Part shown: in pieces, positions 39,645-53,405 of the stretch | How positions within the stretch are numbered: position 1 is the stretch's first letter | Layout: each line of letters opens with the position of its first letter | Origin: Aggregatilineales bacterium | GTDB lineage: Bacteria > Chloroflexota > Anaerolineae > Aggregatilineales > UBA2796 | Assembly: GCA_038239365.1 (NCBI GenBank) | Contig: JBBSEU010000001.1 | Location: 9,688-73,687, forward strand | Direction of reading: 5' to 3' | DNA: 64,000 bases | The notes under the pieces: generated by a model | Told to the model about the DNA's origin: nothing | Database searches by the model: none | Seen by the model: the letters and a program-made list of their open reading frames with translations, nothing else | Translations under genes and position numbers: made by a program

Positions 39645-40799
39645 CTAGACGACGTTGAATTCGCGGACGAGTCGCCCCTGCCCGAAGCGCGCCGCATCCA
39701 ACGCTGAAATGTCAACCGTGTGTGCTTGGCCGTCAAGGATTTGTTCGGCAACCAGCAGCCCCGCGATTGGCCCGTGCATGAAGCCGTGACCACTGAACCC
39801 GGTCACGACGTATAAGCCCTTCACCGCCGGGATCGAACCAATGATCGGGTGTGCATCGGGCGTCACTTCGTAGAGTCCTGCCCATTCGGTCAACTTGCCC
39901 GCCGTTTCAAGAATCGGCAGTCGCTCCATCGCCCGATCCATGTGCTGCAATGTCCAGGACGGATCGATCACCTGCTCGAAGGTGGACGGTTTGCCGACGA
40001 TCCCCTGTCCAGTCAGCAGGCCGCCGCCCTCACGATGAAAGTACAACCGCTGATGAAAATCGATCACGAACGGAAAATCGGCGGGAATATCGGGCATGGG
40101 CGTTGTCACCAGAATTTGTTGGCGCTCCGGTGTTACAGGTAGATCAACGCCAACCATCGCGCACAACGGCGCTGACCAGGGACCCACCGCGTTCACGAGA
40201 AGGTGTGTTTCGATGCGCCCCTGTGAGGTTTGCACGGCCATGATCTCGCCGTCGTGCGTTTCGATCCCGGTCACTTCGACGTTGTTCAAGGTCTGCACGC
40301 CCAGATTGCGCGCCGCCGTGATATAGCCATTCACCACGCCAGATGGATCAGCAATGCCATCTTTGCCGTAATACGTGCCGCTGATGATTCCATCCAGGTT
40401 GAGCAGCGGCACACGCGCCGCGATCTGATCGGGCGTCCAGATTTCGGAGAGGATGCCGTGTTCGTGCTGCTTGGCGACATTGCGCTCGAACTGCGCCATT
40501 TCTTCGGGCGTGGAGAGCAGAAACAGATAACCGGTTAGTTTGAGATCAATTGGCTGACCGGTATCCTGCTCAAACCGTTCCAACATGGCGATGCTCTTGA
40601 TCGAAAGTTCAATGTTCACATCGGTTGAGAACTGATGGCGAATGCCGCCCGCACAACGCCCGGTTGATCCCTGCCCAAAGAACGCTTCACGCTCCAGCAG
40701 CACAATGTCATGCACGCCGCGTTTTGCCAGATGAAAAGCAGTGCTTGCGCCCATGACGCCGCCGCCGATGATCACAATTTCCGCATGGTCTCGTAGCAT
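39645..40799 (-). CDS. FAD-dependent oxidoreductase (DAO family, sarcosine/glycine oxidase-like)
   Basis: ORF track to 40844 (GTG). ATG at 40799 gives MLRDHAEIVIIGGGVMGASTAFHLA (GxGxxG dinucleotide fold) and avoids overlap with the XRE gene. C-terminal GFSGHGFMHGP. Confidence 0.85.
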   Translation of the reverse strand: MLRDHAEIVIIGGGVMGASTAFHLAKRGVHDIVLLEREAFFGQGSTGRCAGGIRHQFSTDVNIELSIKSIAMLERFEQDTGQPIDLKLTGYLFLLSTPEEMAQFERNVAKQHEHGILSEIWTPDQIAARVPLLNLDGIISGTYYGKDGIADPSGVVNGYITAARNLGVQTLNNVEVTGIETHDGEIMAVQTSQGRIETHLLVNAVGPWSAPLCAMVGVDLPVTPERQQILVTTPMPDIPADFPFVIDFHQRLYFHREGGGLLTGQGIVGKPSTFEQVIDPSWTLQHMDRAMERLPILETAGKLTEWAGLYEVTPDAHPIIGSIPAVKGLYVVTGFSGHGFMHGPIAGLLVAEQILDGQAHTVDISALDAARFGQGRLVREFNVV

Positions 40800-40821
40800 G
40801 TTGACTCCGTTCAGGCTGTTT

Positions 40822-41160
40822 TTACTTGGACAACTGCTCGCCACCCAGCCGAATCACACCCGGCCAGCCATTTCGGCGGAAAGTATCGACTATTTGTCGT
40901 TCTTCATCAGATAAAATGCCACCACCAACATGCCCTAACGGCTCATCTGTCCCACCGAGTAGATAATCTACGCTTATGTGTAATTGATCGGCAATCAGTT
41001 TGAGTGTGCTTGACAATGGATCAGTCTGCCCTGTCTCGTATTTGTGAATTAGGGTAGCACCGATCCCACATAAACGGCCAAGTTCCCGTTGTGACCATCC
41101 CTTTTGTTCACGTGCTTTACGGAGTCGATCCGTTCTTAGGGCAATTCCTATATCTGGCAT
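40822..41160 (-). CDS. XRE-family HTH regulator, module 1
   Basis: ORF track to 41190. ATG at 41160 gives MPDIGIALRTDRLRKAREQKGWSQRELGRLCGIGATLIHKYETGQTDP (Cro/C1-type HTH). Paralog of 51605..51982, including the C-terminal TFRRNGWPGVIRLGGEQLSK tail. Confidence 0.8.
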   Translation of the reverse strand: MPDIGIALRTDRLRKAREQKGWSQRELGRLCGIGATLIHKYETGQTDPLSSTLKLIADQLHISVDYLLGGTDEPLGHVGGGILSDEERQIVDTFRRNGWPGVIRLGGEQLSK

Positions 41161-41180
41161 GTAAAAACGCAAAAACCTAC

Positions 41181-41209
41181 TTGACAGCATTCAAGGAACA
41201 ATATATGAT
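41181..41209 (+). promoter_or_regulatory. Sigma-70-like promoter for the module 1 small ORFs
   Basis: TTGACA (41181..41186), 17 nt spacer, TATGAT (41204..41209). Lies 20 nt from the divergent XRE start. Confidence 0.6.
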
Positions 41210-41216
41210 ATTCCAT

Positions 41217-41244
41217 AAATTAGGAACGAAGTCATTCCTAATTT
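41217..41244. promoter_or_regulatory. Perfect 10 bp inverted repeat (candidate operator or 5-prime UTR hairpin)
   Basis: AAATTAGGAA (41217..41226), 8 nt spacer, TTCCTAATTT (41235..41244), immediately downstream of the -10 element. Confidence 0.5.
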
Positions 41245-41299
41245 GGCAGCAAGCCCACTTTAATAAACTTGCCGCCAAAAAACAGAAAGGATTCTATCC

Positions 41300-41599
41300 G
41301 TGAACATTTTACCCGATTTCGCGTCTGCTTCATATTCCCAGTTTCCGGCAGCACAATTGATGCTGCCCGCGCCCCGTATTGCCGGACTGCTCTCGGCGCG
41401 TGTTCCTTCTTCGCAACAGGTGATCGTCACCAAACCGCGCGAGTCGCTCCTGGATCGCCAGCGGGCAATCTGGGCAGCACAGGACGCCGAGCTAGAGGAA
41501 TTTCTAATCGGCGCACGCCAGCGGATTGCCGCCGTGATCGCCGAAATCGAACATGATCGTACAACACGCCGTCCGTACCTTTGGGAGATCACGTCATGA
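41300..41599 (+). CDS. Small hypothetical protein (module 1, ORF a)
   Basis: GTG start after GAAAGGATT. The N-terminal 36 aa share 24 identities (counted by eye) with the ORF at 51114..51473 (ASYS.FP...LML.APRIAGLL.A.VP). ATGA coupling to the next ORF. Confidence 0.6.
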   Translation: MNILPDFASASYSQFPAAQLMLPAPRIAGLLSARVPSSQQVIVTKPRESLLDRQRAIWAAQDAELEEFLIGARQRIAAVIAEIEHDRTTRRPYLWEITS

Positions 41600-42030
41600 G
41601 TCCATCCGAGATGCCGCCATTTCTGCCTTTTACCGACGAGGAAGGCTACTATGTGCGTGATCCAAAAGCGGTGTTCAACCGTACCGATGCTGAGTTCCGC
41701 GCGTTTGAGACACACTTTCAGGCGCTCCTGGACGGTGTGCAGCGGCTTGACGCTAACCGTTCGCCAGAGCAGCAGGCGATCATTGAGCAGCTAAAAAACG
41801 ATTTACAACTGACGCAGGGCAGCACCAAACTGCTGCTATCCCTGATGCGTGAACTTGCCACCTATAACACGCGCCTGACCGAACAACGCCAATCGGCGCG
41901 CAAGGCATTCGAGACTGGCTGGGAAGCCCGCTATATGGACATTCTGAGTCAGCTTCACCCGGAAGATCAGCGGATGCTGCGCTGGATTATTGAGCATATT
42001 GCCGCCACTGACTCATCGGACGAACTGTGA
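41596..42030 (+). CDS. Small hypothetical helical protein (module 1, ORF b)
   Basis: ORF track 41581 (TTG). ATG at 41596 overlaps the ORF a stop (ATGA), the same architecture as module 2. No family recognised. Confidence 0.55.
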   Translation: MSPSEMPPFLPFTDEEGYYVRDPKAVFNRTDAEFRAFETHFQALLDGVQRLDANRSPEQQAIIEQLKNDLQLTQGSTKLLLSLMRELATYNTRLTEQRQSARKAFETGWEARYMDILSQLHPEDQRMLRWIIEHIAATDSSDEL

Positions 42031-42079
42031 TAGTAGCGATCAAGATGATTGGATTGTCTATTCTGACGAATCGCCAATT

Positions 42080-42107
42080 TTGACAGCGCCGTACAGCCCT
42101 ATATAAT
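42080..42107 (+). promoter_or_regulatory. Sigma-70-like promoter of the Liv-type ABC operon
   Basis: TTGACA (42080..42085), 16 nt spacer, TATAAT (42102..42107). Confidence 0.55.
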
Positions 42108-42126
42108 CTTCATCACTCCGCAATAG

Positions 42127-42156
42127 GATGATCAGGTGTTTACCATCCTGATCATC
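42127..42156 (+). promoter_or_regulatory. Leader stem-loop followed by a U-rich tract upstream of the binding-protein gene
   Basis: GATGATCAGG (42127..42136) pairs with CCTGATCATC (42147..42156), followed by GGTTTACTTTTT and then the AAGGAGAG RBS. Confidence 0.4.
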
Positions 42157-42181
42157 GGTTTACTTTTTAAGGAGAGTAGTT

Positions 42182-43594
42182 ATGAAGATCGTTAAGCTGT
42201 TTACCGTCGTTATCGTTCTGACACTCCTGGCGCAACTGCATGGGGCAACCCCAACACGCGCTCAGGGCACTGTTATCAAGATCGCCTCACATAGCCCACT
42301 TTCGGGCGGACAATCACAGCCGGGTAACGCCATCAAGAACGGCGTCGATCTGGCTATTCAACAACTGAGCAAGCCGATCAAGGATTTGGGCTTCACGGTT
42401 GAACTCGCGCCGTTCGACGATCAGGCAGACCCCAAAGTTGGCCCCGTCAACGCACAAAAGATCGTCAGCGATAAGGCAATTGTGGCCGTCGTTGGTCACT
42501 ACAACTCCGGTGTAGCGCGTCCATCGTCGGTGATCTACAACGATAACAATCTGGTCATGGTCTCGCCCGCCAACACCGCCGTCGATATTACGGATCGCGG
42601 TTTCCCAACGGTCAATCGCGTTTGCGGACGTGATGACGCTCAGGGCGCGGCAGGTGCAGATTACGCCGCCAACACGCTCAAGATCAAGTCCGTGTATGTC
42701 ATCAATGACAAGACGGTCTACGGCGCGGGCGTCGCCAAGTTCTTTGTCCAGTCGATCACGGCTGCGGGCGTGAAGGTGCTGGGCAACGAAGGCACGGAAG
42801 AAAAGAGCAACTTCGACGCCGTGATCACCCCGATCCTGAGCCTGAAGCCGGATATGGTCTACTTCTCCGGTATCTATGACCAGGGCGCGCTGTTCTTCAA
42901 GCAAGCCCGTGCGAAGGGTGTGACTGCCCAGTTCATGGGGCCGGATGGTTTGGATGCCCCGGATACCGCCCAAATCGGTGGTGATGCAGTGGTGGGTCTG
43001 GTCTACACGACGACTGCCGCTCCTGCCGCACTCTCGCCCGACTCGAAGCAGTTCCGCGATGATTACAAAGCCAAGTTCGGCTCAGACGCCCCGGCCTATG
43101 GCCCCGAAGCCTATGTTTCAACGGCCATTGTGTTGAAGGCGATTGAAAAAGTCATCAAGGACAACGGCGGCAAGTTCCCGGATCGTAAGGCGATTTCGGA
43201 CGCCGTTCGCGCCACGAAAGACTTCAAGAGCATCCTCGGCACGATCACCTTTGATAAGAATGGCGATCCACAGGTTGCGACGTACTATGTCCTGAAGGTC
43301 AAGTCTGCCGATCCAAAGAACTGGACAGGCAACGAACCGGTTGCGTCCAGCAAGGCCAATTCGCCGCTGACGCCTGCCACTGGTGCCGCCGCAAGCGCGA
43401 CAATGGCTGCTACGATGGCGGCCACCGCTGGTGGTGCAGCACCCACAAATGCGCCTGCCCCTGCGACCATGGCACCAACAATGGCTGCTACGATGGGGGC
43501 AACGACGACACCCGCTACGAAGGCAGCAACCATGCCTGCCACGATGGCTCCAACGATGGCCGCCACCATGGCTCCAACGATGGCCGCCAAGTAA
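42182..43594 (+). CDS. Branched-chain amino-acid-type ABC substrate-binding protein (LivJ/K-like) with a Met/Ala/Thr/Pro-rich C-terminal tail
   Basis: Signal peptide MKIVKLFTVVIVLTLLAQLHGATPTRAQG. PBP type I pattern IKIASHSPLSGGQSQPGN...AVVGHYNSGV. The last 76 aa are low complexity with ten Met residues (ATMAPTMAATMA...). Confidence 0.85.
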   Translation: MKIVKLFTVVIVLTLLAQLHGATPTRAQGTVIKIASHSPLSGGQSQPGNAIKNGVDLAIQQLSKPIKDLGFTVELAPFDDQADPKVGPVNAQKIVSDKAIVAVVGHYNSGVARPSSVIYNDNNLVMVSPANTAVDITDRGFPTVNRVCGRDDAQGAAGADYAANTLKIKSVYVINDKTVYGAGVAKFFVQSITAAGVKVLGNEGTEEKSNFDAVITPILSLKPDMVYFSGIYDQGALFFKQARAKGVTAQFMGPDGLDAPDTAQIGGDAVVGLVYTTTAAPAALSPDSKQFRDDYKAKFGSDAPAYGPEAYVSTAIVLKAIEKVIKDNGGKFPDRKAISDAVRATKDFKSILGTITFDKNGDPQVATYYVLKVKSADPKNWTGNEPVASSKANSPLTPATGAAASATMAATMAATAGGAAPTNAPAPATMAPTMAATMGATTTPATKAATMPATMAPTMAATMAPTMAAK

Positions 43595-43626
43595 GCAGTC
43601 GGGTCTGGCAACGCAACGACCCTACA

Positions 43627-43649
43627 GGGGGAGACGAACTGTCTCCCCC
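43627..43649 (+). other. Intercistronic GC-rich stem-loop (no U-run)
   Basis: GGGGGAGAC (43627..43635) pairs with GTCTCCCCC (43641..43649), between the binding-protein and permease genes. Confidence 0.4.
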
Positions 43650-43678
43650 GCGCATTCTCGACTCGCAAGGAGTTCCGC

Positions 43679-44818
43679 ATGACCTTTTCCACGCGCGCAG
43701 CCAACTGGACGTGGACTTATATCCTCAGACCGTTTTTACAAATTCTGCTGTTTGTCCTCGGTTCGGCTGCCCTGATGTCCGTCATTGCCGTAATTGTGAG
43801 CCTGATCTTTCGTACTCCGGCCTCACGTGGCGCAACACTCGAAATAGATTTATTTGAGCAACTCCTTAAGCAACTGCCTGATACGCTCATCGACGGGATC
43901 ACAATTGGCTTTTTGTACGCCGTGATCGCGCTCGGCTATACAATGGTCTATGGCGTCTTGAAGTTCATCAACTTCGCGCACAGTGAAATCTTCATGGTGG
44001 GCGGCGTGATCGGCTTCGAGGTGATGATTCGGCTGCGCGATGGCAGTTTGCTGACGACGTTTCCGCCAGTGCTATTGGTCATTTTGATGATCGTAGCGGC
44101 CATGGCTTTTTCGGGCACGTTGGCCGTCGTAATCGAACGGTTCGCGTACAGGCCGCTGCGTAATGCGCCGCGCTTGGTGCCGCTCATCTCAGCGATTGGT
44201 ATCTCGTTGTTTCTACAAGATGCGGTACGTGCTTTGGAAGGGTTGGGGCGTAACCAGTTCAATTTGGCCTATCCGACGGACAGCGTCCCCTTCCTGACAC
44301 AGCGCCTACCGATTGGGCCAACAGTGACGATCAGTGTCACGGCGATCATCATCGTGATTAGTGCGATTATCATGGTACTTGGCCTGAATTATTTCGTGAA
44401 TGCCACCAAAATCGGCAAAGGTATTCGCGCCGTTTCACAGGATCAGGCGACGGCCAGTCTGATGGGGATCGACGTGAACCAGATGATTGCGATCACGTTT
44501 CTGGTGGGCGGCGCATTAGGTGGCGCGGCAGGCGTGCTGTTTGGGTTGAAGGCGGGCAATATTTCGCCGTTTTCGGGGTTCATTCCTGGCCTCAAAGCAT
44601 TCACGGCGGCGGTGTTAGGCGGAATCGGTAATATCACGGGCGCGTTGCTCGGTGGCATTCTGCTAGGGCTGATCGAAGCCTTTTTTTCGTCGCTGCTGCC
44701 TTTTTTCCCTTCGTTCGGCACCAGTTACAGCGATATTTTTGCTTTTATGATCCTGATTCTGATCTTAATATTCCGACCTACCGGGCTGCTCGGTCAGCGC
44801 GTTGATGAGAAAGTGTAG
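43679..44818 (+). CDS. livH: Branched-chain amino-acid ABC permease (LivH-like) with N-terminal extension
   Basis: GITIGFLYAVIALGYTMVYGVLKFINFAHSEIFMVGG is the LivH signature. About 60 extra N-terminal residues include one TM helix. Confidence 0.85.
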   Translation: MTFSTRAANWTWTYILRPFLQILLFVLGSAALMSVIAVIVSLIFRTPASRGATLEIDLFEQLLKQLPDTLIDGITIGFLYAVIALGYTMVYGVLKFINFAHSEIFMVGGVIGFEVMIRLRDGSLLTTFPPVLLVILMIVAAMAFSGTLAVVIERFAYRPLRNAPRLVPLISAIGISLFLQDAVRALEGLGRNQFNLAYPTDSVPFLTQRLPIGPTVTISVTAIIIVISAIIMVLGLNYFVNATKIGKGIRAVSQDQATASLMGIDVNQMIAITFLVGGALGGAAGVLFGLKAGNISPFSGFIPGLKAFTAAVLGGIGNITGALLGGILLGLIEAFFSSLLPFFPSFGTSYSDIFAFMILILILIFRPTGLLGQRVDEKV

Positions 44819-44823
44819 CCGAT

Positions 44824-46239
44824 ATGACCGTACAGCAAACGATAAACGCGCCGCCTGATAACCTGCTTCGGCGCTACGGAATACTGGCAGCGGTGATCAT
44901 CTTCGTGGCGGCGATGTTCCTCATCCTGATCACGATGGACAACAGTCTGACATTTTCGCCGTTGTGGACAGCATTGGCTTTCCCGGCACTGGCGATTTCG
45001 CCGTTTTTGATCTTGCGTCTGAACGTGAGTCGGCAGATCAAAGCGTTTTTGATCCTGATCATGCTGCTGATCCTGATGCCCGTGTTGGGCGTTCATGACA
45101 GTTTTTACTTCACGCTGGCAACGCAGATCGGCATTTTCGCGGCGATGGCGCTTGGCCTGAACATCGTCGTCGGCTTCGCCGGGCTGCTTGACTTGGGTTA
45201 TGTGGCATTTTTCGCGGTGGGCGCGTACCTGTGGGGTATTTTCACGTCGCAGACCGATAATTATATTCACGCCATTGGCCTGACCGCGCCCGCCTGGATG
45301 TTTTATGTGTTCCTGTTTTTGGCGGTGATTGTGGCCGCTTTCGCCGGGATTTTACTGGGATTACCCGTTTTGCGCTTGCGCGGCGATTATCTGGCAATCG
45401 TGACGCTCGGCTTCGGTGAGATGATCCGCATCCTATTCAAGAATCTGGATCACCCGGTGAACATCACGAACGGGACGCTGGGCTTGGATGGGTTGGCGTC
45501 GCCGCCGCTGCCCCCGTTTATAGGGAGCATCACCGATTGGCTGGTGACGACGTTCAAGCTGGAAGTTGGTAATCCGCAGGTGTTGGCTTATCAGTTGTTT
45601 TTCTATCTGTTGGTGCTGGCGATTTGCGGCGCAGCGATTTTAGTGGCTGGGCGGCTGGACGACTCCCCAATTGGGCGGGCATGGACGGCGATTCGTGAGG
45701 ACGAGACGGCGGCGCTGGCAATGGGCGTGCCGCTGGTACGCATGAAGCTGCTGGCCTTCGCAATGGGCGCATCATTCGCGGGCGCGATGGGCGTGGTATT
45801 CGCCGCTAAGTTCAAATCCCTGACGCCGGATGCGTTCGATTTCAACCAGTCGATTTTCATTCTAGCAATTGTGATCGTCGGCGGCATGGGCAGCATTCGC
45901 GGCGTGCTGTTGGGCGCGATTGTTGTTTCGCTGCTCAACCTGCAAATTCTGCAAAGTCTGTCGAGCTTGATCAATAACCTGAAAAATCAGAACGCGGTGA
46001 TCCCGGTCATCAACTTTGCGTTTAAGGATTGGCCGAATCAATTGGCCGTCGAAAATTATCAACGCTTTGTGTTCGGTATTCTGCTGATCGTGATCGTATT
46101 GTTCCGACCTGCCGGGATTCTGCCTGCCAGTCGGCGCAAAACCGAACTTGAGGATCGAGATGATGTGCCGCCCGACCTGACCGAAATACCGCCGGATATG
46201 TCCCTGACCGAAAGCGGAGGTGACGGCCATGCTGCTTGA
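44824..46239 (+). CDS. livM: Branched-chain amino-acid ABC permease (LivM-like) with N-terminal extension
   Basis: GLNIVVGFAGLLDLGYVAFFAVGAY and LRLRGDYLAIVTLGFGEMIR signatures. About 100 aa N-terminal extension with extra TM helices. Confidence 0.85.
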   Translation: MTVQQTINAPPDNLLRRYGILAAVIIFVAAMFLILITMDNSLTFSPLWTALAFPALAISPFLILRLNVSRQIKAFLILIMLLILMPVLGVHDSFYFTLATQIGIFAAMALGLNIVVGFAGLLDLGYVAFFAVGAYLWGIFTSQTDNYIHAIGLTAPAWMFYVFLFLAVIVAAFAGILLGLPVLRLRGDYLAIVTLGFGEMIRILFKNLDHPVNITNGTLGLDGLASPPLPPFIGSITDWLVTTFKLEVGNPQVLAYQLFFYLLVLAICGAAILVAGRLDDSPIGRAWTAIREDETAALAMGVPLVRMKLLAFAMGASFAGAMGVVFAAKFKSLTPDAFDFNQSIFILAIVIVGGMGSIRGVLLGAIVVSLLNLQILQSLSSLINNLKNQNAVIPVINFAFKDWPNQLAVENYQRFVFGILLIVIVLFRPAGILPASRRKTELEDRDDVPPDLTEIPPDMSLTESGGDGHAA

Positions 46240-47005
46240 AGTACGGGGCGTGATCAAGAAGTTTGGCGGTCTGACGGCGGTTCAAAACGTCGAATATACG
46301 CAGGAAGCGCGCACGATTTGCACGATCATCGGGCCAAACGGTGCGGGCAAAACGACGTTTTTCAACATCCTGACCGGGATTTACAAGCCGGATGGTGGCA
46401 GCGTCACCTTTGGCGGTAAGAACATGGTTGGCTTGCGACCAGACCAGATCAACGCGGCGGGGATTTCGCGCACCTTTCAGAATATCCGCCTGTTCAACAG
46501 CATGTCCGTCCTTGAGAATATCATGGTTGGGATGCACTCACGCTTGCGGATCAATCTGTTCGATACGATTATCCGAACGCCGCGCTTCAATCATCAGGAA
46601 GAATCGGTTCGGCGCAAAGTGGGCGATATTCTGGATTTCGTGAACCTGAGCGATAAGAGTAACGAGATCGCGCGCAACCTGCCCTATGGCGATCAGCGGC
46701 GGTTGGAGATCGGGCGGGCGCTTGCCAGTGACCCCAAATTGATCCTGCTCGATGAACCCACCGCCGGGATGAATCCGCAGGAAAGCGTCGAGGCGATGGC
46801 CTTGTTCCGGCGCGTGCGGGACGAACTGGGCATCACGGTGCTGCTGATCGAACATGATATGCGTGTCGTGATGGGCATTTCGGATCGGATCACGGTGCTT
46901 GACTACGGTCAGAAGATCGCCGAAGGATCGCCCGATGAAGTGCGCCGTGAACCGCGCGTGATTGAGGCGTATCTGGGACGCGGTAGTCAAACGGATGCGT
47001 TGTGA
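46229..47005 (+). CDS. livG: Branched-chain amino-acid ABC ATP-binding protein (LivG-like)
   Basis: ORF track 46220 (GTG). ATG at 46229 after GGAGG gives MLLEVRGVIKKFGGLTAV. GPNGAGKTT, LPYGDQRRLEIGRAL, LLDEPTAGM. Confidence 0.9.
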   Translation: MLLEVRGVIKKFGGLTAVQNVEYTQEARTICTIIGPNGAGKTTFFNILTGIYKPDGGSVTFGGKNMVGLRPDQINAAGISRTFQNIRLFNSMSVLENIMVGMHSRLRINLFDTIIRTPRFNHQEESVRRKVGDILDFVNLSDKSNEIARNLPYGDQRRLEIGRALASDPKLILLDEPTAGMNPQESVEAMALFRRVRDELGITVLLIEHDMRVVMGISDRITVLDYGQKIAEGSPDEVRREPRVIEAYLGRGSQTDAL

Positions 47006-47094
47006 GAAGAAGGTATCAGCAGTCAGGTATCAGCTATCAGCAAAAGACAGATAGGATTATTCCCCGGCGTAAATAAGTAGGGACGGGCACTTGC

Positions 47095-47805
47095 ATGGCG
47101 CTTCTTAAACTGGAAAATGTACATACTTACTACGGCCATATCCACGCGCTCAAAGGTATCTCGCTGGAAGTGAATGAAGGCGAAGTCGTGACGCTGATCG
47201 GCTCGAATGGTGCGGGCAAAAGTACCACCTTGCGAACGATCAGCGGATTGGCGCGGCCACGACTCGGATCGGTCACGTTCGCGGATAAGTCGATTGGTGG
47301 TTTGAAACCGCACGAGATCACCAAACTGGGATTAGGACATGTCCCCGAAGGTCGGCGCATTTTCCCACTGCTGACTGTGCGCGAAAATCTTGAGATCGGG
47401 GCGTATACAGTGGCACGGCGCGAAGTGGAACCGCGCATCGAGGCGGCACTGGTACTTTTTCCGCGTCTGCGCGAACGGCTTACGCAAATGGGCGGCACGC
47501 TCTCCGGCGGTGAGCAGCAAATGTTGGCGATGGCGCGCGGGCTGATCCTTGAGCCGCGTATTTTGCTGCTCGATGAACCGTCGATGGGACTTGCGCCGGT
47601 GCTGGTTGATGCGATTTTTGACATCATTCAGGAGCTTCACGCCAAAGGCACGACGATCCTGTTGGTTGAACAAAACGCCCGACTCGCGTTGCAAGTTGCG
47701 GATCGCGGTTATATTTTGCAGACCGGGATGATCGTCTTACAGGACAGCGCCGAAAATTTGCGTTCCAGTGATACCGTCCGCAAAGCGTACCTGGGCGAAT
47801 CCTGA
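47095..47805 (+). CDS. livF: Branched-chain amino-acid ABC ATP-binding protein (LivF-like)
   Basis: GSNGAGKST, LSGGEQQMLAMARGL, LLLDEPSMGLAP. Confidence 0.9.
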   Translation: MALLKLENVHTYYGHIHALKGISLEVNEGEVVTLIGSNGAGKSTTLRTISGLARPRLGSVTFADKSIGGLKPHEITKLGLGHVPEGRRIFPLLTVRENLEIGAYTVARREVEPRIEAALVLFPRLRERLTQMGGTLSGGEQQMLAMARGLILEPRILLLDEPSMGLAPVLVDAIFDIIQELHAKGTTILLVEQNARLALQVADRGYILQTGMIVLQDSAENLRSSDTVRKAYLGES

Positions 47806-47870
47806 ACGCGCCATCACCGCTCCTGCGCGGCGCGTTTTATGGGCTGGCCGCGGGCGCGATCTGGGGCGGG

Positions 47871-48689
47871 ATGTACGTCGTCAGCGAACAGGTGCTGCGC
47901 GTCATTCCATCATTTACGCTGCTTTCACTGCGCCTGATCATCGGATCGGCCATCCTCGGCACGATATTGGCGGCGCGCGGCGAACTTCGTATCGAACGGC
48001 ACGACGCTATCAGACTGTTGGGCGTGGGAATCGTCGGCTCAGGCTTGAGTCTGGGCGCGCAGTTCGTTGGGACACATCTCGCCTCCGCGATCAATGGCGC
48101 AGTTGTGACCAGCGCCTCACCTGCTTTCACATTGTTGTTCGCGTGGCTGCTTTTGCGTGAACCACTCAGCCTGACGCGAATCGGAGCAGTGCTGCTGGCG
48201 ACCATTGGCGTTTTGGCGGTACTGGATTTGTCGAAGTTCGATCTGGAGTCGAGCGCCGTGCTGGGCAATCTTGCGTTGATCTTCGCCGCACTGACGTGGG
48301 GCTTGTATTCGGCGCTGGTACGGCTGGTCTCGAAACGTTACCCGACGCTCACGATCAGTTTTTATGCGCTGGCAGGTGGATTGATTATTTCGATTCCGGC
48401 GGCAGGTTTGGAATTATCCAGTCAAACGATCAGCGACGTTTCATTGGGGACGATTTTGGGTGTGCTGTACCTGGGCGTCGTGTCCTCGGCATTGGCACTG
48501 CTGCTCTGGAATCGTGCGTTTGCGTTGGTAGAGGCAAGTGTAGCGTCACTGTTCTTTTTCGCGCAACCGCTGGTGGGCGTGATCCTTGCTGCGATTATCC
48601 TGCATGAACCAATCACCTTGAATCTACTCATTGGCGGCTTTTTGATCGTGTTGGGTGTGCTGTTATCGATCACACGCAGTCACTCATAA
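47871..48689 (+). CDS. EamA/DMT-family transporter (start uncertain)
   Basis: Two EamA-like halves, about 10 TM. The in-frame upstream codons (47823..47870: LRGAFYGLAAGAIWGG) look like the missing start of TM1, but the frame has no ATG/GTG/TTG back to the livF stop. Confidence 0.7.
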   Translation: MYVVSEQVLRVIPSFTLLSLRLIIGSAILGTILAARGELRIERHDAIRLLGVGIVGSGLSLGAQFVGTHLASAINGAVVTSASPAFTLLFAWLLLREPLSLTRIGAVLLATIGVLAVLDLSKFDLESSAVLGNLALIFAALTWGLYSALVRLVSKRYPTLTISFYALAGGLIISIPAAGLELSSQTISDVSLGTILGVLYLGVVSSALALLLWNRAFALVEASVASLFFFAQPLVGVILAAIILHEPITLNLLIGGFLIVLGVLLSITRSHS

Positions 48690-48711
48690 ACTACTTGATC
48701 CAAAATAGCAA

Positions 48712-48739
48712 TTGCCAATTAGCCGGATTCCGCTAGAAT
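48712..48739 (+). promoter_or_regulatory. Weak candidate promoter for the redox gene trio
   Basis: TTGCCA (48712..48717), 16 nt spacer, TAGAAT (48734..48739). Pattern match only. Confidence 0.3.
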
Positions 48740-48775
48740 TATATAGACTGGTCTATTTAATGAAGGCAAATAAAA

Positions 48776-49408
48776 ATGAAGTTAGCGATTTTTGGCGCGA
48801 CGGGTCGTACCGGAGTGCCTTTAGTGCAACAGGCGCTTGACGCGGGACATGAAGTCGTCGCGCTGGTTCGTAATCCAGCCAAAATGACTATCAAAAATGC
48901 GCGCCTGTCCTTGATTCAGGGCGATATAATGAATGCCGCCGATGTCGAGAAGGTGATTAGTGCTGATGTCAGTGCAGTAATCGCCGTTCACGCGCCAAGC
49001 AAAGAGTCGCCCAAGACGCTGCTCACAAGCGCAGCCGATAACATTCTGGCGACCATGAAACGGCACAAGGTCAAGCGCATCATTTACATGACAGGCGCGG
49101 GTGTCGATATGCCGGGCGATAAGCCGAAGCTGATCAACCATGTAATCAAGTTTGCGCTCAAGACGATGGCGGGCGATGTTTTGAAACAGTCCGAGGAAGC
49201 CGTTCGCAAGGTACAGAACAGCGGGTTAGATTGGACAATCGTCCGTGTGCCGATGTTGAATGAAGATCCGCACAGCGGCAAGTATCGGGTTGGGATGGTG
49301 GGTGTCGGCACGGGGCCGCGCCTGAGTCGTGCCGATGCTGCCGATTTCATCCTGAGCGCGCTGAAGGATAGCAAGTATCTAGGCCAGTCGCCCGTAATCA
49401 GCAATTAA
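48776..49408 (+). CDS. NAD(P)H-binding atypical SDR (NmrA/flavin-reductase-like)
   Basis: MKLAIFGATGRTGVPLVQQALDAGHEVVALVRNPAKM Rossmann start. Confidence 0.85.
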   Translation: MKLAIFGATGRTGVPLVQQALDAGHEVVALVRNPAKMTIKNARLSLIQGDIMNAADVEKVISADVSAVIAVHAPSKESPKTLLTSAADNILATMKRHKVKRIIYMTGAGVDMPGDKPKLINHVIKFALKTMAGDVLKQSEEAVRKVQNSGLDWTIVRVPMLNEDPHSGKYRVGMVGVGTGPRLSRADAADFILSALKDSKYLGQSPVISN

Positions 49409-49422
49409 AGGAGACTCGACTT

Positions 49423-49884
49423 ATGCAAAACCGATCCTGGGAGTGGACGCCGCCGCCTACAATGAACCGCGTTATGTCTACCGTTTTACGGCTGCCGGTG
49501 CTGCATCGCATGATGAGCAAGGAAATTTTGCTGCTCACTTTTACCGGGCGCAAGTCTGGCAAAAAGTTCACAACGCCTGTTGGCTACTTCCGTGAGGGGA
49601 ATACCGTCACGCTGCTGACCAAACAGTTCCGCCCCTGGTGGCGCAACTTTATCAATGCTGCCCCGGTTCAGATGCGGATGGAAGGTAAAACAGCCAAAGG
49701 AACGGCCAAAGCCTTGACTGATACGGCAACCATCACGCCCATTATCGCTAATCTCATGGAAAAGCACCCGCGCGAGGCACAAATTTACGGCGTTGGCTTG
49801 CTGCCAGATGGCAAACCAAATATGGATGATGTGAACCGTATCGCGCCGAAAGTGGTCATCATCCAAATTACCCTTGAGAAGTGA
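49423..49884 (+). CDS. Deazaflavin (F420H2)-dependent oxidoreductase family protein (DDN/DUF385-like)
   Basis: ILLLTFTGRKSGKKFTTPVGYFREGNTVTLL...RPWWRNFINAAPVQMRMEG matches the split beta-barrel TGRKSG...P.WxRN pattern. Confidence 0.7.
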   Translation: MQNRSWEWTPPPTMNRVMSTVLRLPVLHRMMSKEILLLTFTGRKSGKKFTTPVGYFREGNTVTLLTKQFRPWWRNFINAAPVQMRMEGKTAKGTAKALTDTATITPIIANLMEKHPREAQIYGVGLLPDGKPNMDDVNRIAPKVVIIQITLEK

Positions 49885-49957
49885 TGGGCAACCCTCGTCA
49901 GATCGAAAACCCGGCCTATAATCGATCCGGTTCATAGTCGATATCAACAAGGGATGG

Positions 49958-50737
49958 ATGATGACAGGTTTTCGTGTTGGGGTTCAGCTTCACCCGCAGC
50001 TAACAACGTATGCTTCGTATGCGGACGCGGTTCGCCAATCTGAGGCGATGGGTGTCGATAGTATCTGGAACTGGGATCACTTCTTTCCGCTGTATGGCGA
50101 CCCGAATGGCAATCACTTCGAGGGCTGGACGCTGCTGACGGCAATGGCGACGCTGACGCAGCGTGCCCAGATCGGGTGTCTGGTGACGTGCAACACCTAT
50201 CGCAACCCGGCGCTGCTGACGCACATGGCAAAGACGATTGATCACATCAGCGGCGGACGGTTGATCATTGGGTTGGGCGCGGGTTGGTTTGAGCGCGATT
50301 ACAAAGAATTTGGTTACGAGTTCGGCACAGCGGCGGATCGGCTGCGCGCGCTAGGTGAGTCGCTGCCGATTATCAAGCAGCGCATGGCCGCCGAAGTACC
50401 CGCGCCAGTACGCAACCCGATCCCGATTCTGATTGGTGGCGGTGGCGAAAAAGTGACACTTAAGCTGACTGCTCAATACGCTGATCTGTGGAATAGTTTT
50501 GGCCCGGCTGAACAATGGCAGCATAAGAACAACGTCCTGAATGAATGGTGTGAAAAAGTGGGTCGCAATCCGGCAGAGATCGAACGCACGATTGCGGTTT
50601 CGGCAGAAGACCCGGCAGACGCCCTTGATCAGTTCGCCAACGCGGGCGCAACGCACATGATTATCTCGATGGGACATCCCTGGGATTTCAAGCGAATCGA
50701 ACAAGCAATTCAGTGGCGTGACGCGGCAAATAAGTAA
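49958..50737 (+). CDS. Luciferase-like (LLM class) F420-dependent oxidoreductase
   Basis: FRVGVQLHPQ...MGVDSIWNWDHFFPLYGDPNGNHFEGWTLLTAMA...GGRLIIGLGAGWFERDYKEFGYEF. Confidence 0.8.
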   Translation: MMTGFRVGVQLHPQLTTYASYADAVRQSEAMGVDSIWNWDHFFPLYGDPNGNHFEGWTLLTAMATLTQRAQIGCLVTCNTYRNPALLTHMAKTIDHISGGRLIIGLGAGWFERDYKEFGYEFGTAADRLRALGESLPIIKQRMAAEVPAPVRNPIPILIGGGGEKVTLKLTAQYADLWNSFGPAEQWQHKNNVLNEWCEKVGRNPAEIERTIAVSAEDPADALDQFANAGATHMIISMGHPWDFKRIEQAIQWRDAANK

Positions 50738-50750
50738 ATCAGTTCTAGCG

Positions 50751-50783
50751 GGTGGGCTTCAACAAAGGAAGCCCACCGTTTTC
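50751..50783 (+). terminator. Rho-independent terminator between convergent genes
   Basis: GGTGGGCTTC (50751..50760), 7 nt loop, GAAGCCCACC (50768..50777), then GTTTTC. Confidence 0.6.
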
Positions 50784-50808
50784 GGATCAAACGCTCTGAT
50801 TGAATACT

Positions 50809-51117
50809 CTATTCGCCGCGCATCGCCCTTAGCTGTGCCAGGATCGCCCGATAGGCGGCCACCGCTTCGTGACGCTGTGCCAGCATCTTATCAGACAGTT
50901 CGACGGCTTGCCGCGTGGTTTCGCGCGCCATGCCAATATCGGTATACACTTCGTCGGCGCGCTGCTCGATGTTGCTGAGGAAGTCGTAGATGGCAGATGT
51001 ACTTTCTTCGCCGGTCCGCATCATCTCACGCGCCATATCGATCTGTTCAAACAGGCGCAGCAGTGATTGATCGGCCTGATCCAGCGGATCGCTGTGCAGA
51101 AAACTTGAAGGTTTCAT
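50809..51117 (-). CDS. Small hypothetical helical protein (module 2, ORF b)
   Basis: ATG at 51117 overlaps the stop of ORF a (ATGA). Helix-rich and acidic. Positional equivalent of 41596..42030, though sequence similarity is not obvious. Confidence 0.55.
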   Translation of the reverse strand: MKPSSFLHSDPLDQADQSLLRLFEQIDMAREMMRTGEESTSAIYDFLSNIEQRADEVYTDIGMARETTRQAVELSDKMLAQRHEAVAAYRAILAQLRAMRGE

Positions 51118-51473
51118 GAACCACGCTCCGCCTGTGCGCGCTGCTGCCAGCGTTCACGTACTGCCTGCCGCTGTCGTTCCACATCATCACACAGCGCGAC
51201 ATAGCGTGCTTGTGCCTGCTCGAATATGGCGTACAGATCGGCGTCCATTTCGTCGGGCGTGCGGAACAGGCGATGTGTTTGCAAGCCTGTGTCCTGGCTA
51301 TTCTTTTTGAGTAGCAATTCCTGACCGGGCGCGAGTCCGGTACGAAATACGGGCGGCTCAGCGCCGGGGACTTGTGCCGGGAGCAGCCCGGCGATTCGGG
51401 GCGCGGCCAGCATCAACAAGGGCGGCGGGAAATGGGAATATGAAGCGGGCGCAGATTGAGGTACAATTTGCAT
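51114..51473 (-). CDS. Small hypothetical protein (module 2, ORF a)
   Basis: ATG preceded by GAAAGGATT, the same string as upstream of 41300. N-terminus MQIVPQSAPASYSHFPPPLLMLAAPRIAGLLPAQVP is paralogous to module 1 ORF a. Confidence 0.6.
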   Translation of the reverse strand: MQIVPQSAPASYSHFPPPLLMLAAPRIAGLLPAQVPGAEPPVFRTGLAPGQELLLKKNSQDTGLQTHRLFRTPDEMDADLYAIFEQAQARYVALCDDVERQRQAVRERWQQRAQAERGS

Positions 51474-51549
51474 CGGAAACTAATCCTTTCTTGTGCGGCG
51501 AATCGCTCGTGTCTGGGTGTTCGCCGTGCATCACTCAACATTCAATTAG

Positions 51550-51578
51550 ATGATACGTTAGTTATTCTGGCTTGTCAA
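51550..51578 (-). promoter_or_regulatory. Sigma-70-like promoter for the module 2 small ORFs
   Basis: Reverse strand reads TTGACA (51578..51573), 17 nt spacer, TATCAT (51555..51550). Same geometry as the module 1 promoter. Confidence 0.55.
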
Positions 51579-51604
51579 GTAATTCCTCATTTTCAGGTCG
51601 CAGC

Positions 51605-51982
51605 GTGAAAACACGGATCGGAATCCGCATAGATCGGCTTATCAAACTGCGTGAAGAACGTGGTTGGTCACAACGGGAACTTGCTCGACGTTGCGATTTA
51701 AGCGACTCGATGGTTCAAAAGTACGAGACGGCGGCTAGTGATCCTACATCTTATACTATCATTCTTTTGGCAGGTACATTAGACGTAAGTACCGATTATT
51801 TGTTAGGTGTGACAGATGATCCACGAAGAAATGTTAGTGATGGCGCGCTCGATCAGGTAGAACGCTTCCTGGTAGAAACCTATCGGCATAAGGGCTGGAG
51901 CGGTATCGCTCATTTAGGCGTCGAGGAATTATCGAAGTTTGCGCCCGATGCCCAAAGACGCACCGGGAAACGATCAGATTGA
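51605..51982 (+). CDS. XRE-family HTH regulator, module 2
   Basis: ORF track 51572 (TTG inside the divergent -35). GTG at 51605 gives VKTRIGIRIDRLIKLREERGWSQRELARRCDLSDSMVQKYETAASDP, colinear with module 1 XRE. C-terminal TYRHKGWSGIAHLGVEELSK. Confidence 0.75.
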   Translation: MKTRIGIRIDRLIKLREERGWSQRELARRCDLSDSMVQKYETAASDPTSYTIILLAGTLDVSTDYLLGVTDDPRRNVSDGALDQVERFLVETYRHKGWSGIAHLGVEELSKFAPDAQRRTGKRSD

Positions 51983-52395
51983 TGTCGCAAATCAGCAATG
52001 CCGCGCTCATCGAAAAGGCCGCCGCCGTCCTTAACCCGATCAAGCTGGCTGATCATTGGGTGGGCGATGTGGGCAGCGCACTCATCACCGATCAGGGCAA
52101 TATTTACCTGGGTGTGTGCATGGACATCAGTTCGGGCATTGGTTTTTGTGCCGAACATAGCGCCATCGCCGCGATGGTCACGGCAGGTGAATACCGGATC
52201 GAAAAGATCGTCGCCGTCTGGAAAGATGACAAAGGGCTTTACGTGCTATCTCCCTGTGGGCGCTGCCGAGAGTTCATCCGCCAGATTCACAAGGATAATT
52301 TGCAGACCGAAGTGATCTTAGACGTGGATAAAGTGGCGCGGCTGGCCGAACTGCTGCCCTACCACGATTGGTTTCATCCCCTGTCGAAGGGTTAA
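51982..52395 (+). CDS. Small cytidine/deoxycytidylate deaminase-fold protein (blasticidin-S-deaminase-sized)
   Basis: Zinc-ligand motifs CAEHSAI (C/H-A-E) and SPCGRCREF (PCxxC). ATG shares one base with the XRE stop (TGATG). Confidence 0.8.
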   Translation: MSQISNAALIEKAAAVLNPIKLADHWVGDVGSALITDQGNIYLGVCMDISSGIGFCAEHSAIAAMVTAGEYRIEKIVAVWKDDKGLYVLSPCGRCREFIRQIHKDNLQTEVILDVDKVARLAELLPYHDWFHPLSKG

Positions 52396-53375
52396 CCCCA
52401 CACAATTACCGTATTATCTTTGCTACCGGATGCGATCCGCGCGCCATCACTCGAAAACGCAATGCTATGCACCTTATCAGTGTGCCGCCGCAAGACCCCA
52501 ATCGGATAAGGGCGGCGGTCATCAATACGCCATAAACGGATCGTATGGTCACTTGAGGCAGACGCTAGTCGCAAGCCGTCCGGCGAAAAAGCCACGCATT
52601 GAACGCAGTCTTCATGCGCGCGGAGCGTGATCGGCACGGCATAGCGAAGCGTCGTCAGATCGTGTGGCAACAGCGATAAATCCCAGATTTTGACGGTGCC
52701 ATCATAACTGCCCGATGCCAGCCGCCGTCCGTCAGGTGAAAAGGCGGCACTCGTCACACCATCGGTATGGCTGCGAAGGGTCACCAACGGTGCGGTAGTT
52801 TGCCTGTTCAGGATAGCGCGCAAATCCCACAACAGCAGCGTATTATCCATGCTGGTCGAAATCAACCAGCGCGCGTTAGGTGATACTACCACCTGATAAA
52901 CATGACCGTTGTGCCCACTCAGAGCAATCGGCGGGCGCTGCGGCTTTTCCAGATCGATCAGCCGCACAACGTTGTCCGTGCCGCCGGAGATCAGCCAGCG
53001 TTCATCGGGAGTGAAGGTCACACTGTAGACCGCGCCCGAATGCGCTTCCAGTCCGAGTCGCAACCAGGCGGCCAGTCTGCGCCGAAGGGCAAGCTGCCAT
53101 AAGCGAACCCGGTGATCATTGCTGCCTGTCGCCAGCCAACTGTGTCGTGGCGAAAAAGTGACGCTGGAAACTGAACCCGCGTGCCCTTCGAGTGTTGAGT
53201 CAAGTCGCTCCGCCGATAAATCCCACAGTTTGACCGTGTTATCGTAGCTGCCAGAGGCCAGATAGCGAGGGTTTGCAGAAAGGCTTGCAAAGGCGACGCT
53301 GTACACCGTTTGAGTGTGGCCGCGTAGCGTCATGAGCGGCTCAAATTTCCCGGATCGGCTGAGTGGCGCAACCAT
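52392..53375 (-). CDS. Stand-alone seven-blade WD40 repeat protein
   Basis: Seven repeats ending VKLWDL, VRLWQL, VRLIDL, LLLWDL, VKIWDL, IRLWRI, VIVWG, each preceded by GH-type starts (LRGHTQTVYSVAF, LEGHAGSVSSVTF...). Confidence 0.85.
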   Translation of the reverse strand: MVAPLSRSGKFEPLMTLRGHTQTVYSVAFASLSANPRYLASGSYDNTVKLWDLSAERLDSTLEGHAGSVSSVTFSPRHSWLATGSNDHRVRLWQLALRRRLAAWLRLGLEAHSGAVYSVTFTPDERWLISGGTDNVVRLIDLEKPQRPPIALSGHNGHVYQVVVSPNARWLISTSMDNTLLLWDLRAILNRQTTAPLVTLRSHTDGVTSAAFSPDGRRLASGSYDGTVKIWDLSLLPHDLTTLRYAVPITLRAHEDCVQCVAFSPDGLRLASASSDHTIRLWRIDDRRPYPIGVLRRHTDKVHSIAFSSDGARIASGSKDNTVIVWG

Positions 53376-53405
53376 AAGCGTTTGCCTGATTCTAGTGAAT
53401 GTTAC

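Follow-up and report, generated by a model that had tools for sequence, protein, structure and literature searches.

Two small gene modules of the same unusual design, turned towards each other on either side of a block of transporter and redox genes, raise the question of what these modules are and whether they form a functional unit with the block that they enclose. They lie in a 64-kb stretch of the genome of an Aggregatilineales bacterium (assembly GCA_038239365.1, contig JBBSEU010000001.1), hereafter the window, and each consists of a gene for an XRE-type helix-turn-helix (HTH) regulator divergent from two coupled small open reading frames (ORFs), ORF a and ORF b, whose products we call A and B. 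We find that this triad is conserved, that A and B are real proteins, and that the promoter, the leader hairpin, the ribosome-binding site and the ATGA coupling of the pair are conserved as well. An HTH regulator divergent from A and B recurs in approximately 17 independent metagenomic loci or loci of metagenome-assembled genomes (MAGs), which we found by exact look-up and pattern scans; the contigs are metagenomic and represent few lineages, and the only named source among them is a MAG of Aggregatilineales (Chloroflexota, Anaerolineae), with two copies on two contigs.

The triad and its proteins

The genes of the two window modules are listed below; W1 and W2 denote modules 1 and 2, L-numbers the numbered loci and P-numbers representative proteins.

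40822..41160, minus strand: XRE1, a 112-aa HTH_3 regulator (HTH_3 E 3.7e-14) with a family-specific C-terminal tail (..FRRNGWPGVIRLGGEQLSK)
41300..41599, plus strand: A1 (ORF a, module 1), 99 aa, GTG start; in its AlphaFold 2 model an N-terminal half that is disordered and carries a conserved motif (..L.LPAPRIAGLLPA..) is followed by one long, confident helix at 50-89
41596..42030, plus strand: B1 (ORF b, module 1), 144 aa, a predicted three-helix protein with an ATGA overlap with A1
50809..51117, minus strand: B2 (ORF b, module 2), 102 aa, a remote member of the B family that stops short of the conserved C-terminal part
51114..51473, minus strand: A2 (ORF a, module 2), 119 aa, ATG start, with the same N-terminal motif as A1 (LLMLAAPRIAGLLPAQVP)
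51605..51982, plus strand: XRE2, a 125-aa HTH_3 regulator, GTG start, with the shared tail and a 14-aa extension

The coordinates and strands of all six ORFs agree with those originally proposed, as does the ATGA junction between ORF a and ORF b in both modules, and independent gene calling on a public assembly that contains this DNA (Logan SRR24807096, L001) gives the three products of module 1 (112, 99 and 144 aa) as well. Outside the window, an HTH regulator stands divergently upstream of A and B in every locus with enough upstream sequence, and an XRE with the C-terminal tail accompanies the pair, in the same divergent layout, in L002, L003, L007-L014 and L019-L024. The co-occurrence of the tailed regulator with homologs of A and B, for which a database search had been proposed, is thus conserved in other genomes. 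More distant relatives (L016 and L017/L018) keep the HTH, A-like and B-like genes, the A-like gene with the motif ..L.APRIAGLLPA.., and in L017 (6435-7365) B is followed by an 86-aa protein resembling part of the A-like gene and then by a 226-aa protein, which contains a GIY-YIG-like string (..GVYQIV..IGQG..RLKEH..) and has no match in Pfam at E 0.001.

The two XREs, judged by eye to be colinear and about half identical, share 50% identity over 107 aa (E 2e-38) in an alignment that runs through to the end of XRE1, and both match Pfam HTH_3 (PF01381) at 52.9 and 52.6 bits, respectively, against a cut-off of 23. Rather than being confined to the generic HTH, their similarity runs past it into the tail, where E87, R95, G98, W99, G101 and L110 are invariant in 12 of 12 aligned XREs linked to modules, both window copies included, and V102 and S111 are nearly so. 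We define this module-linked XRE subfamily by the tail E-x7-R-x2-GW-x-GV-x7-L-S after the HTH and by a gene divergent from an A-B pair, and XRE1 and XRE2 both belong to it. Two tandem tailed XREs precede a single A-B pair in L002 (4982-5879) and L003 (4876-5871), the distal copy resembling XRE1 and the proximal copy XRE2; in L003 their C-terminal halves (PRGHLGDAQVADEEKEMIEMFRREGWPGVI..) are near identical and their HTH halves different, which suggests gene conversion or a recent partial duplication.

That ORF a and ORF b might not be translated at all had been named as an outcome that would undermine the prediction. Pairwise comparisons among nine loci (dS 0.9-3) give a median dN/dS of 0.23 for A and 0.15 for B, and both frames are therefore under protein-level purifying selection. 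Since the frames are selected as proteins and the junction between them is conserved, a long antisense ORF at 41260-41715 is an artefact. The recurrence of the triad, the selection on its small genes and their ATGA coupling together support the proposal of a conserved, regulator-controlled pair of small coupled genes.

The original prediction could assign neither small ORF to a known family, and our searches of Pfam, NCBIfam, PHROG and PADLOC, and of PDB by sequence profile, were empty for both; judged by these comparisons, A and B appear to be new protein families. Among 5.8 billion proteins, A1 has 37 homolog clusters (83-120 aa) and B1 has 29 (approximately 144 aa, 55-65% identical, with many invariant columns), all of them unannotated. 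Run with HMMER against the full set of 1.84 billion representatives, the B profile returned 37 proteins, including relatives of 120-135 aa that share the core L..QRQSA+.AF.AGW..RY.DI...L. The AlphaFold 2 model of B1 (pLDDT 74) has helices at 23-49, 57-119 and 122-138 and disordered ends. In A, the most widely kept feature is the N-terminal motif ..[Q/M]-L-x-L-P-A-P-x-I-A-G-L-L-P-A.., which is present in A2 and in the distant relatives. We considered whether this motif docks on the XRE tail and co-evolves with it, and rejected this as a main idea because L006 and L017 keep the motif beside HTH regulators that have no such tail.

The two modules had been taken for paralogs. This holds clearly for the XREs and for A1 and A2 (E 2e-13, strongest over the N-terminal 35 aa), whereas B1 and B2 show no direct similarity (BLASTP E 1.1; 3.5% probability in a mixed-family hhalign comparison; 5 bits against the close-family hidden Markov model, HMM). 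Against an HMM of distant B-like proteins, B2 scores 16.8 bits, a value reached by none of 2000 shuffles (the best scoring 12.5), in a colinear alignment of residues 13-91 with profile positions 14-93; it also matches the bridge sequence P0097 (BLASTP with composition correction, 28% over 67 aa, E 1e-6). B2 is consequently best regarded as a remote B homolog, one that stops right after the QR..A..AY motif, with the GW..RY.DIL segment and the acidic tail absent. All three module genes are thus paralogous, B only remotely. At the DNA level the modules are only 74-75% identical, in stretches of at most 106 nt, and the identity between XRE1 and XRE2 (49-50%) lies within the range of that to XREs of other organisms (43-59%); the paralogy is therefore old and not the result of a recent inverted duplication. 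Moreover, since XRE2 is nearest to the XRE of L016 (66% over 70 aa), A2 resembles the A-like gene there (36% over 90 aa, E 1e-8) and B2 has only one other homolog cluster among the 5.8 billion proteins, module 2 represents a different and rarer sub-lineage than module 1, so that the two window copies are old paralogs from two different sub-lineages. The 64-kb window holds no third copy.

Promoter, leader and operator

The regulatory features between each XRE gene and its A-B pair are as follows:

41181..41209, plus strand: promoter of A1-B1, TTGACA-17-TATGAT, its -35 box 20 nt from the XRE1 start codon
41217..41244, either strand: operator-like inverted repeat (AAATTAGGAACGA / TCATTCCTAATTT), just 3' of the -10 box, at about +1 to +28 of the A1-B1 transcript
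41242..41279, plus strand: 5' leader hairpin of module 1, GGCAGCAAG ... CTTGCCGCC with a 14-nt loop (-13.1 kcal/mol, z -3.9), between operator and ribosome site
41285..41293, plus strand: ribosome-binding string of A1, GAAAGGATT, 6 nt before the GTG
51482..51490, minus strand: ribosome-binding string of A2, GAAAGGATT, 8 nt before the ATG
51496..51526, minus strand: 5' leader hairpin of module 2, CGGCGAA ... TTCGCCG with a 17-nt loop (-10.8 kcal/mol, z -2.9)
51550..51578, minus strand: promoter of A2-B2, TTGACA-17-TATCAT, 26 nt from the XRE2 start

The near-consensus promoters noted beside both XRE starts (TTGACA-17-TAT(G/C)AT) each match TTGACA-17-TATAAT at 11 of 12 positions, and a TTGACA/TAnnnT promoter is placed equivalently in 10 of 11 related intergenic regions. 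Across the 11 regions the order of parts is constant: the XRE start, 20-30 nt, a promoter facing A (TTGACA, 16-18 nt, TAnnnT), a locus-specific stretch, the hairpin, approximately 10-15 nt further the ribosome site, and A. The string shared ahead of both ORFs a, GAAAGGATT, does lie 6-8 nt before the start, and GGAG or AAGGA strings occupy the equivalent place in all related loci. At the junction of A and B, the sequence TGGGAGATCnnnnCATGA is conserved, combining a ribosome site for B within the last codons of A (GGGAGA in the case of B1) with the 4-nt overlap.

The leader hairpin folds at the equivalent position in all 11 related leaders tested (those of the window and of L002, L003, L006-L008, L011, L012, L014 and L016), with z-scores between -2.3 and -5.5 that are somewhat flattering, the segments having been picked after the hairpin was seen. 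Its stem of 8-10 bp closes a loop of 12-20 nt that often begins AGCC, and the stems differ between loci while their pairing is kept (GCAGCAAG/CTTGCTGC, GCGGCAAG/CTTGCCGC, GCAGCGAG/CTCGCTGC, CAGCAGGTG/CACCTGCTG, GTAGGTAGC/GCTACCTAC and CGGCGAA/TTCGCCG). The element could be a protein-binding or stability element. Rfam 15 covariance models gave no match at E up to 1 within 40500-52500, and RNAalifold found no structure on a MAFFT alignment of the leaders, in which the varying loop lengths misalign the 3' arms, so that folds of the single sequences were used instead; the 10-mer GCRGYRAGCS, tried as a probe for further copies, was too common to inform.

The inverted repeat proposed at 41217-41244 is real, with 13-nt arms that are 92% complementary; it is unique in the window, and 2 of 300 shuffles were as good. 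We infer that XRE1 binds this repeat, and, from the layout and the regulator family, that the XREs would repress the A-B promoter. A single operator common to all loci was considered and rejected, since only W1, L002 and L012 have a significant repeat of this kind over the -10/+1 region. A half-site (TTCCTCATT) at 51583-51591 on the plus strand, just upstream of the -35 box of the module-2 promoter, differs by one mismatch from the module-1 half-site TTCCTAATT; approximately 8.6 such one-mismatch half-sites are expected by chance in the whole window, and the presence of one in the 130-nt module-2 spacer is mildly suggestive of cross-talk or of shared ancestry.

Defence islands and the possible role of the cassette

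Most relatives of the cassette lie within defence islands (BREX, type I and IIG restriction-modification (R-M), prokaryotic Argonaute, TIR, HKD-Snf2), a setting that could not be seen from the window alone. Within 10 kb of the cassette we find:

L007: a type IIG/ISP restriction-methylase and a TIR-HEAT protein
L008/9, L019 and L020: HKD+Snf2 helicase-nucleases
L009: a PIN toxin, with other toxin-antitoxin-like genes nearby
L013: BREX PglX-PglZ-BrxL
L014: an MmeI-like fragment (MmeI_N)
L019: a DrmMI-like methylase and PDC-M30A/B
L023: a prokaryotic Argonaute and a type I R-M system

Furthermore, in ten loci the gene directly after B (at a gap of at most 14 nt, or overlapping) is one of three DNA-targeting kinds:

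L006, L007, L011, L013, L019 and L024: a 600-aa ResIII helicase, then a 154-aa protein and a convergent XRE of a second type
L010, L012 and L014: a 465-aa Mrr_cat-like protein
L008/9: a 571-aa GmrSD_N protein

The helicase unit occupies 6766-9391 in L007, 2800-5476 in L011 and 10760-13385 in L019, and is partial in L006, L013 and L024; its only PADLOC matches are weak (PbeA, E 3e-5), and the 154-aa protein has no family. The Mrr-like variant (L010, L014) ends in the second-type XRE too, giving the impression of a cargo slot with B on one side and this regulator on the other. Recurrence beside defence genes, with three kinds of DNA-targeting enzyme directly behind the same pair, is the pattern usually left by a conserved sensor or regulator whose effectors can be exchanged. 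Additionally, the C-terminus of B tracks the gene downstream, with ...DDPSLF beside the helicase and ...SDxxPF beside the Mrr-like or GmrSD-like protein. No homolog of the helicase, Mrr-like or GmrSD-like effectors occurs in the window, and stand-alone copies amid housekeeping or metabolic genes comprise both window modules, L002, L003, L021/22 and L016. Because neither has an effector gene, the window copies are minimal or orphan versions of the cassette.

The explanation that we prefer, and that we hold to be about as probable as its negation, is that the A-B pair forms an XRE-repressed cassette tied to defence, the constant front end of swappable DNA-targeting effectors, of which the window carries effector-less paralogs. 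The XRE would shut the A-B promoter by binding at or just downstream of the -10 box, and a trigger such as infection or DNA damage would lift this repression. A, with its long helix and disordered docking motif, and B, a helical hairpin that usually has an acidic ...[ILM]PF tip, would then be produced in a one-to-one ratio and assemble into a small complex of helices, which would serve as a conserved sensor, adaptor or gate for the exchangeable effector. Several observations weigh against this explanation. Only three of the 11 loci show a clear operator repeat, and module 2 has no significant one; no sigma-70-like promoter matching at least 8 of 12 positions was found on the XRE strand for the XRE gene itself. 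The empty family and PDB profile searches for A and B extend to structure, Foldseek against PDB and BFVD returning generic helical-hairpin noise only, and neither B of the window has the ...PF tip, B1 ending ...TDSSDEL and the truncated B2 ...AMRGE. The specific XRE is replaceable, since L006 and L017 have another HTH regulator that lacks the GW tail. Adjacency to defence genes is correlative, and the stand-alone copies (W1, W2, L002, L003, L021/22, L016) have neither effector nor defence neighbours and are still under purifying selection, which suggests that A and B are able to work alone and fits a toxin-antitoxin-like reading too.

Such a reading, the main rival, in which A and B are a toxin and its neutraliser (or a two-part toxin) silenced by the XRE, would make the triad an autonomous toxin-antitoxin or abortive-infection-like module that spreads selfishly, gathers in defence islands and persists alone in ordinary chromosomal sites; we consider it unlikely, if credible enough to be taken seriously. 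It would account for stand-alone copies with unrelated neighbours that remain under selection (W1, W2, L002, L003, L021/22), for several copies per genome (two in the window, two in one Aggregatilineales MAG), for the tight 1:1 translational coupling of A and B, and for a strong promoter with a structured leader under a repressor, whose HTH resembles those of the HipB, HigA and MqsA antitoxins, and a PIN toxin and other genes of this kind lie near the cassette in L009. However, neither A nor B matches a toxin or antitoxin family in Pfam, NCBIfam or PADLOC, the HTH gene is divergent and not co-transcribed as in classical type II systems, and the operon runs gaplessly into a nuclease or helicase gene in ten loci, which is not expected of a closed pair. 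A rather doubtful elaboration of the defence explanation, one of replisome-hub mimicry, starts from the tails of B. In our survey of the family (proteins P0039-P0105, for example P0084 at L016 690-1091 and P0083 at L017 6001-6381), 33 of 66 representatives have a C-terminus in which an acidic run precedes a final [ILMVT]-P-[FY], as in ...EKEDDDIPF, ...HDDIPF, ...GNDIPF and ...ENEIPF, and approximately 12 more end in ...DDPSLF. The acidic ...IPF tail resembles the C-terminal tip of single-stranded DNA-binding protein (SSB), which in E. coli reads MDFDDDIPF and recruits more than 17 genome-maintenance proteins (PMC7913777); we treat the likeness as a lead only. B has no OB fold, being a predicted helical hairpin, and B1 and B2 do not carry the tip. 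If the elaboration held, A and B would be a new class of small proteins and the conserved core of an anti-phage system whose effectors can be exchanged, governed by an XRE switch and a conserved leader hairpin; in it B would show an SSB-like ...DDDIPF tip on a helical scaffold and A an N-terminal docking peptide (..Q-L-L-L-P-A-P-R-I-A-G-L-L-P-A..). Where foreign DNA is being replicated, the pair would act on enzymes that bind SSB tips, by recruiting, gating or decoying them; these would be the ResIII helicase or the Mrr-like or GmrSD-like nuclease encoded alongside, or else phage proteins of replication and recombination. The effector-less window copies would be free-standing sensor or decoy units. 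The tips thereby offer a concrete, testable idea of which cellular hub the cassette touches.

Two further explanations arise from the window itself and from the shape of the switch. It is distinctly improbable that the XREs are local metabolic regulators of the enclosed liv/EamA/F420 block or of the genes lying outwards, with A and B as accessory co-regulators. A gene for a DAO (FAD-dependent) oxidoreductase does follow XRE1 after 22 nt on the same strand (40799-40822), and the stop codon of XRE2 shares nucleotides with the ATG of a cytidine/dCMP-deaminase-family gene (TGATG, 51980-51984), so that each XRE is probably co-transcribed with its outward metabolic gene; this arrangement is seen in the window only, and the neighbours are different in every other locus, where the commonest partners of the family are defence genes. 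Likewise, both pairs of small ORFs were said to point inward at the block, and A1-B1 do face livK, 152 nt away, but A2-B2 converge on a luciferase-like gene. Within the gap between B1 and livK lies a perfect promoter (TTGACA-16-TATAAT, 12/12, 42080-42107, plus strand), from which it follows that the liv operon has a strong promoter of its own, and the module-1 operator occurs only once in the window; the suggestion that the modules control the enclosed genes is not borne out. Highly improbable, finally, is that the modules are immunity-region remnants of decayed prophages, satellites or integrative elements, with the XRE as a cI/ImmR-like repressor and A and B as early small genes such as anti-repressors. 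The divergent layout around an overlapping promoter region had prompted a comparison with phage cI/cro switches, the solved sequences closest to the XRE HTH are ImmR of ICEBs1 (7t8i) and P22 C2, regulators of Firmicutes phages are 30-38% identical to it, PHROG repressor families are also matched, and L003, alone among the loci, has a Peptidase_M78 gene at a distance of 4 kb from its module. Yet no relative of A or B was detected in 2.9 million viral contigs, 50,697 phage records or 72,556 plasmids (the latter two searched by tblastn), neither protein has an HTH or another known domain, and neither XRE, nor the rest of either module, matches Peptidase_S24 or M78. A tRNA search of the window found none, its ORF list contains no integrase-like or transposase ORF, and no integrase, tRNA or phage structural gene accompanies the cassette there or in the 20-kb related loci. 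The cI/cro analogy has accordingly been set aside.

Among described systems, the defence-tied cassette that we prefer is closest in logic to the CapH/CapP, CapW/BrxR and CapK/CapS regulator modules, which stand beside diverse anti-phage operons (bioRxiv 10.1101/2022.04.27.489752; 10.64898/2026.02.02.703251), and to the transcription factor-small ORF (TF-smORF) modules of phages, and it fails the partner-protein tests of each. In the CapH/CapP type, as here, a small XRE-type repressor gene is divergent beside operons with varying defence effectors, a position that we find in the relatives (ten loci) and not in the window. CapH is also the best PADLOC match of both XREs (E 1.7e-12 for XRE1, over profile positions 9-74 of 103, and 3.9e-10 for XRE2), the matched part being mainly generic HTH; matches to Control_protein are far weaker (E 1e-5 to 0.03, XRE1 at approximately 1e-5). 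In contrast to these systems, neither the window modules nor the related cassettes have a CapP-type M78 peptidase, a WYL domain or a kinase/STAS partner, and the conserved partners are instead two new small helical proteins, whose genes open the regulated operon. Linear plasmid-like phages carry TF-smORF modules in which the transcription factor activates the smORF, whose product inactivates the phage cI (Silpe et al. 2023, PMC10432266). A transcription factor, often of XRE type, beside a small protein acting on protein and not on DNA, with a shared layout and varying sequences, is common to both; those modules are phage-borne, whereas ours are chromosomal or in defence islands, comprise two coupled genes, have no cI target, and are more likely to work by repression.

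The remaining comparisons share less. Lambda cI/Cro, P22 C2 and ICEBs1 ImmR/ImmA resemble the cassette in that transcription diverges from a short stretch between genes and in that the repressor is an HTH_3 protein whose hinge reads ..S.DYLLG.., whereas the cassette has no Cro-like HTH gene, S24 autocleavage, ImmA partner or context of a phage or integrative and conjugative element. Type II and tripartite toxin-antitoxin systems (HigBA, HipBA, MqsRA, PaaR2-PaaA2-ParE2) likewise pair overlapping small genes with an XRE-type binder, in multiple copies at variable locations and in defence islands, and differ in their recognisable toxin and antitoxin families, in the strand of the HTH gene, and in that A and B are often followed, within one operon, by large genes for nucleases or helicases. 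In R-M systems, the controller (C) proteins are small HTH_3 proteins that time a potentially self-toxic nuclease; as a rule, their gene precedes that of the endonuclease in the same transcript, and they bind C-boxes in their own promoter, whereas the XRE is divergent in all loci and two genes intervene between promoter and nuclease. As for the WhiJ/BldB-type XRE-DUF397 paralog families of actinomycete-like bacteria, neither A nor B matches DUF397. What is known, then, is the repressor-gated, defence-associated operon as a kind, and what is new is the A and B families. The immune repertoire of Anaerolineae-type Chloroflexota is almost unstudied, and the family offers a testable candidate for a new defence-associated module.

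The bracketed block and its surroundings

Between the modules lie a Liv-type ABC transporter (five genes), EamA, an NAD(P)H-binding protein (NAD_binding_10), F420H2_quin_red and a luciferase-like monooxygenase (Bac_luciferase). The original prediction treated the symmetric bracketing of these genes as meaningful; in no other locus, however, do two modules enclose a block, and the genes beside the modules differ from one locus to the next. Because the arrangement is unique among the loci, the liv genes have their own promoter, the operator is unrepeated and A2-B2 are convergent on the block, the modules most likely came to bracket the block by chance, or at most through an old rearrangement, and form no functional unit with it. 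A composite transposon or inverted-repeat island does not fit the 74-75% DNA identity over at most 106 nt, the lack of a transposase or integrase in the window, or a GC content that is the same in the block as in its flanks. In this instance, the bracket around the transporter and redox genes should consequently be read neither as a regulon nor as a mobile island.

Two minor observations concern the neighbouring genes. The livK-like gene (42182-43594) encodes a low-complexity C-terminal tail rich in Ala, Thr, Met and Pro (..ATMAATMAPTMAATMA.., at 43400-43590 on the plus strand), an unusual extension for a Peripla_BP_6 protein, which is encoded by approximately nine imperfect repeats in 12-nt phase. 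Outside module 2, at 52392-54647 on the minus strand, a seven-blade WD40 protein is encoded beside a protein in which two FHA domains flank a response-regulator receiver domain, a WD40 and FHA/receiver signalling pair that is typical of filamentous Chloroflexota and unrelated to the modules.

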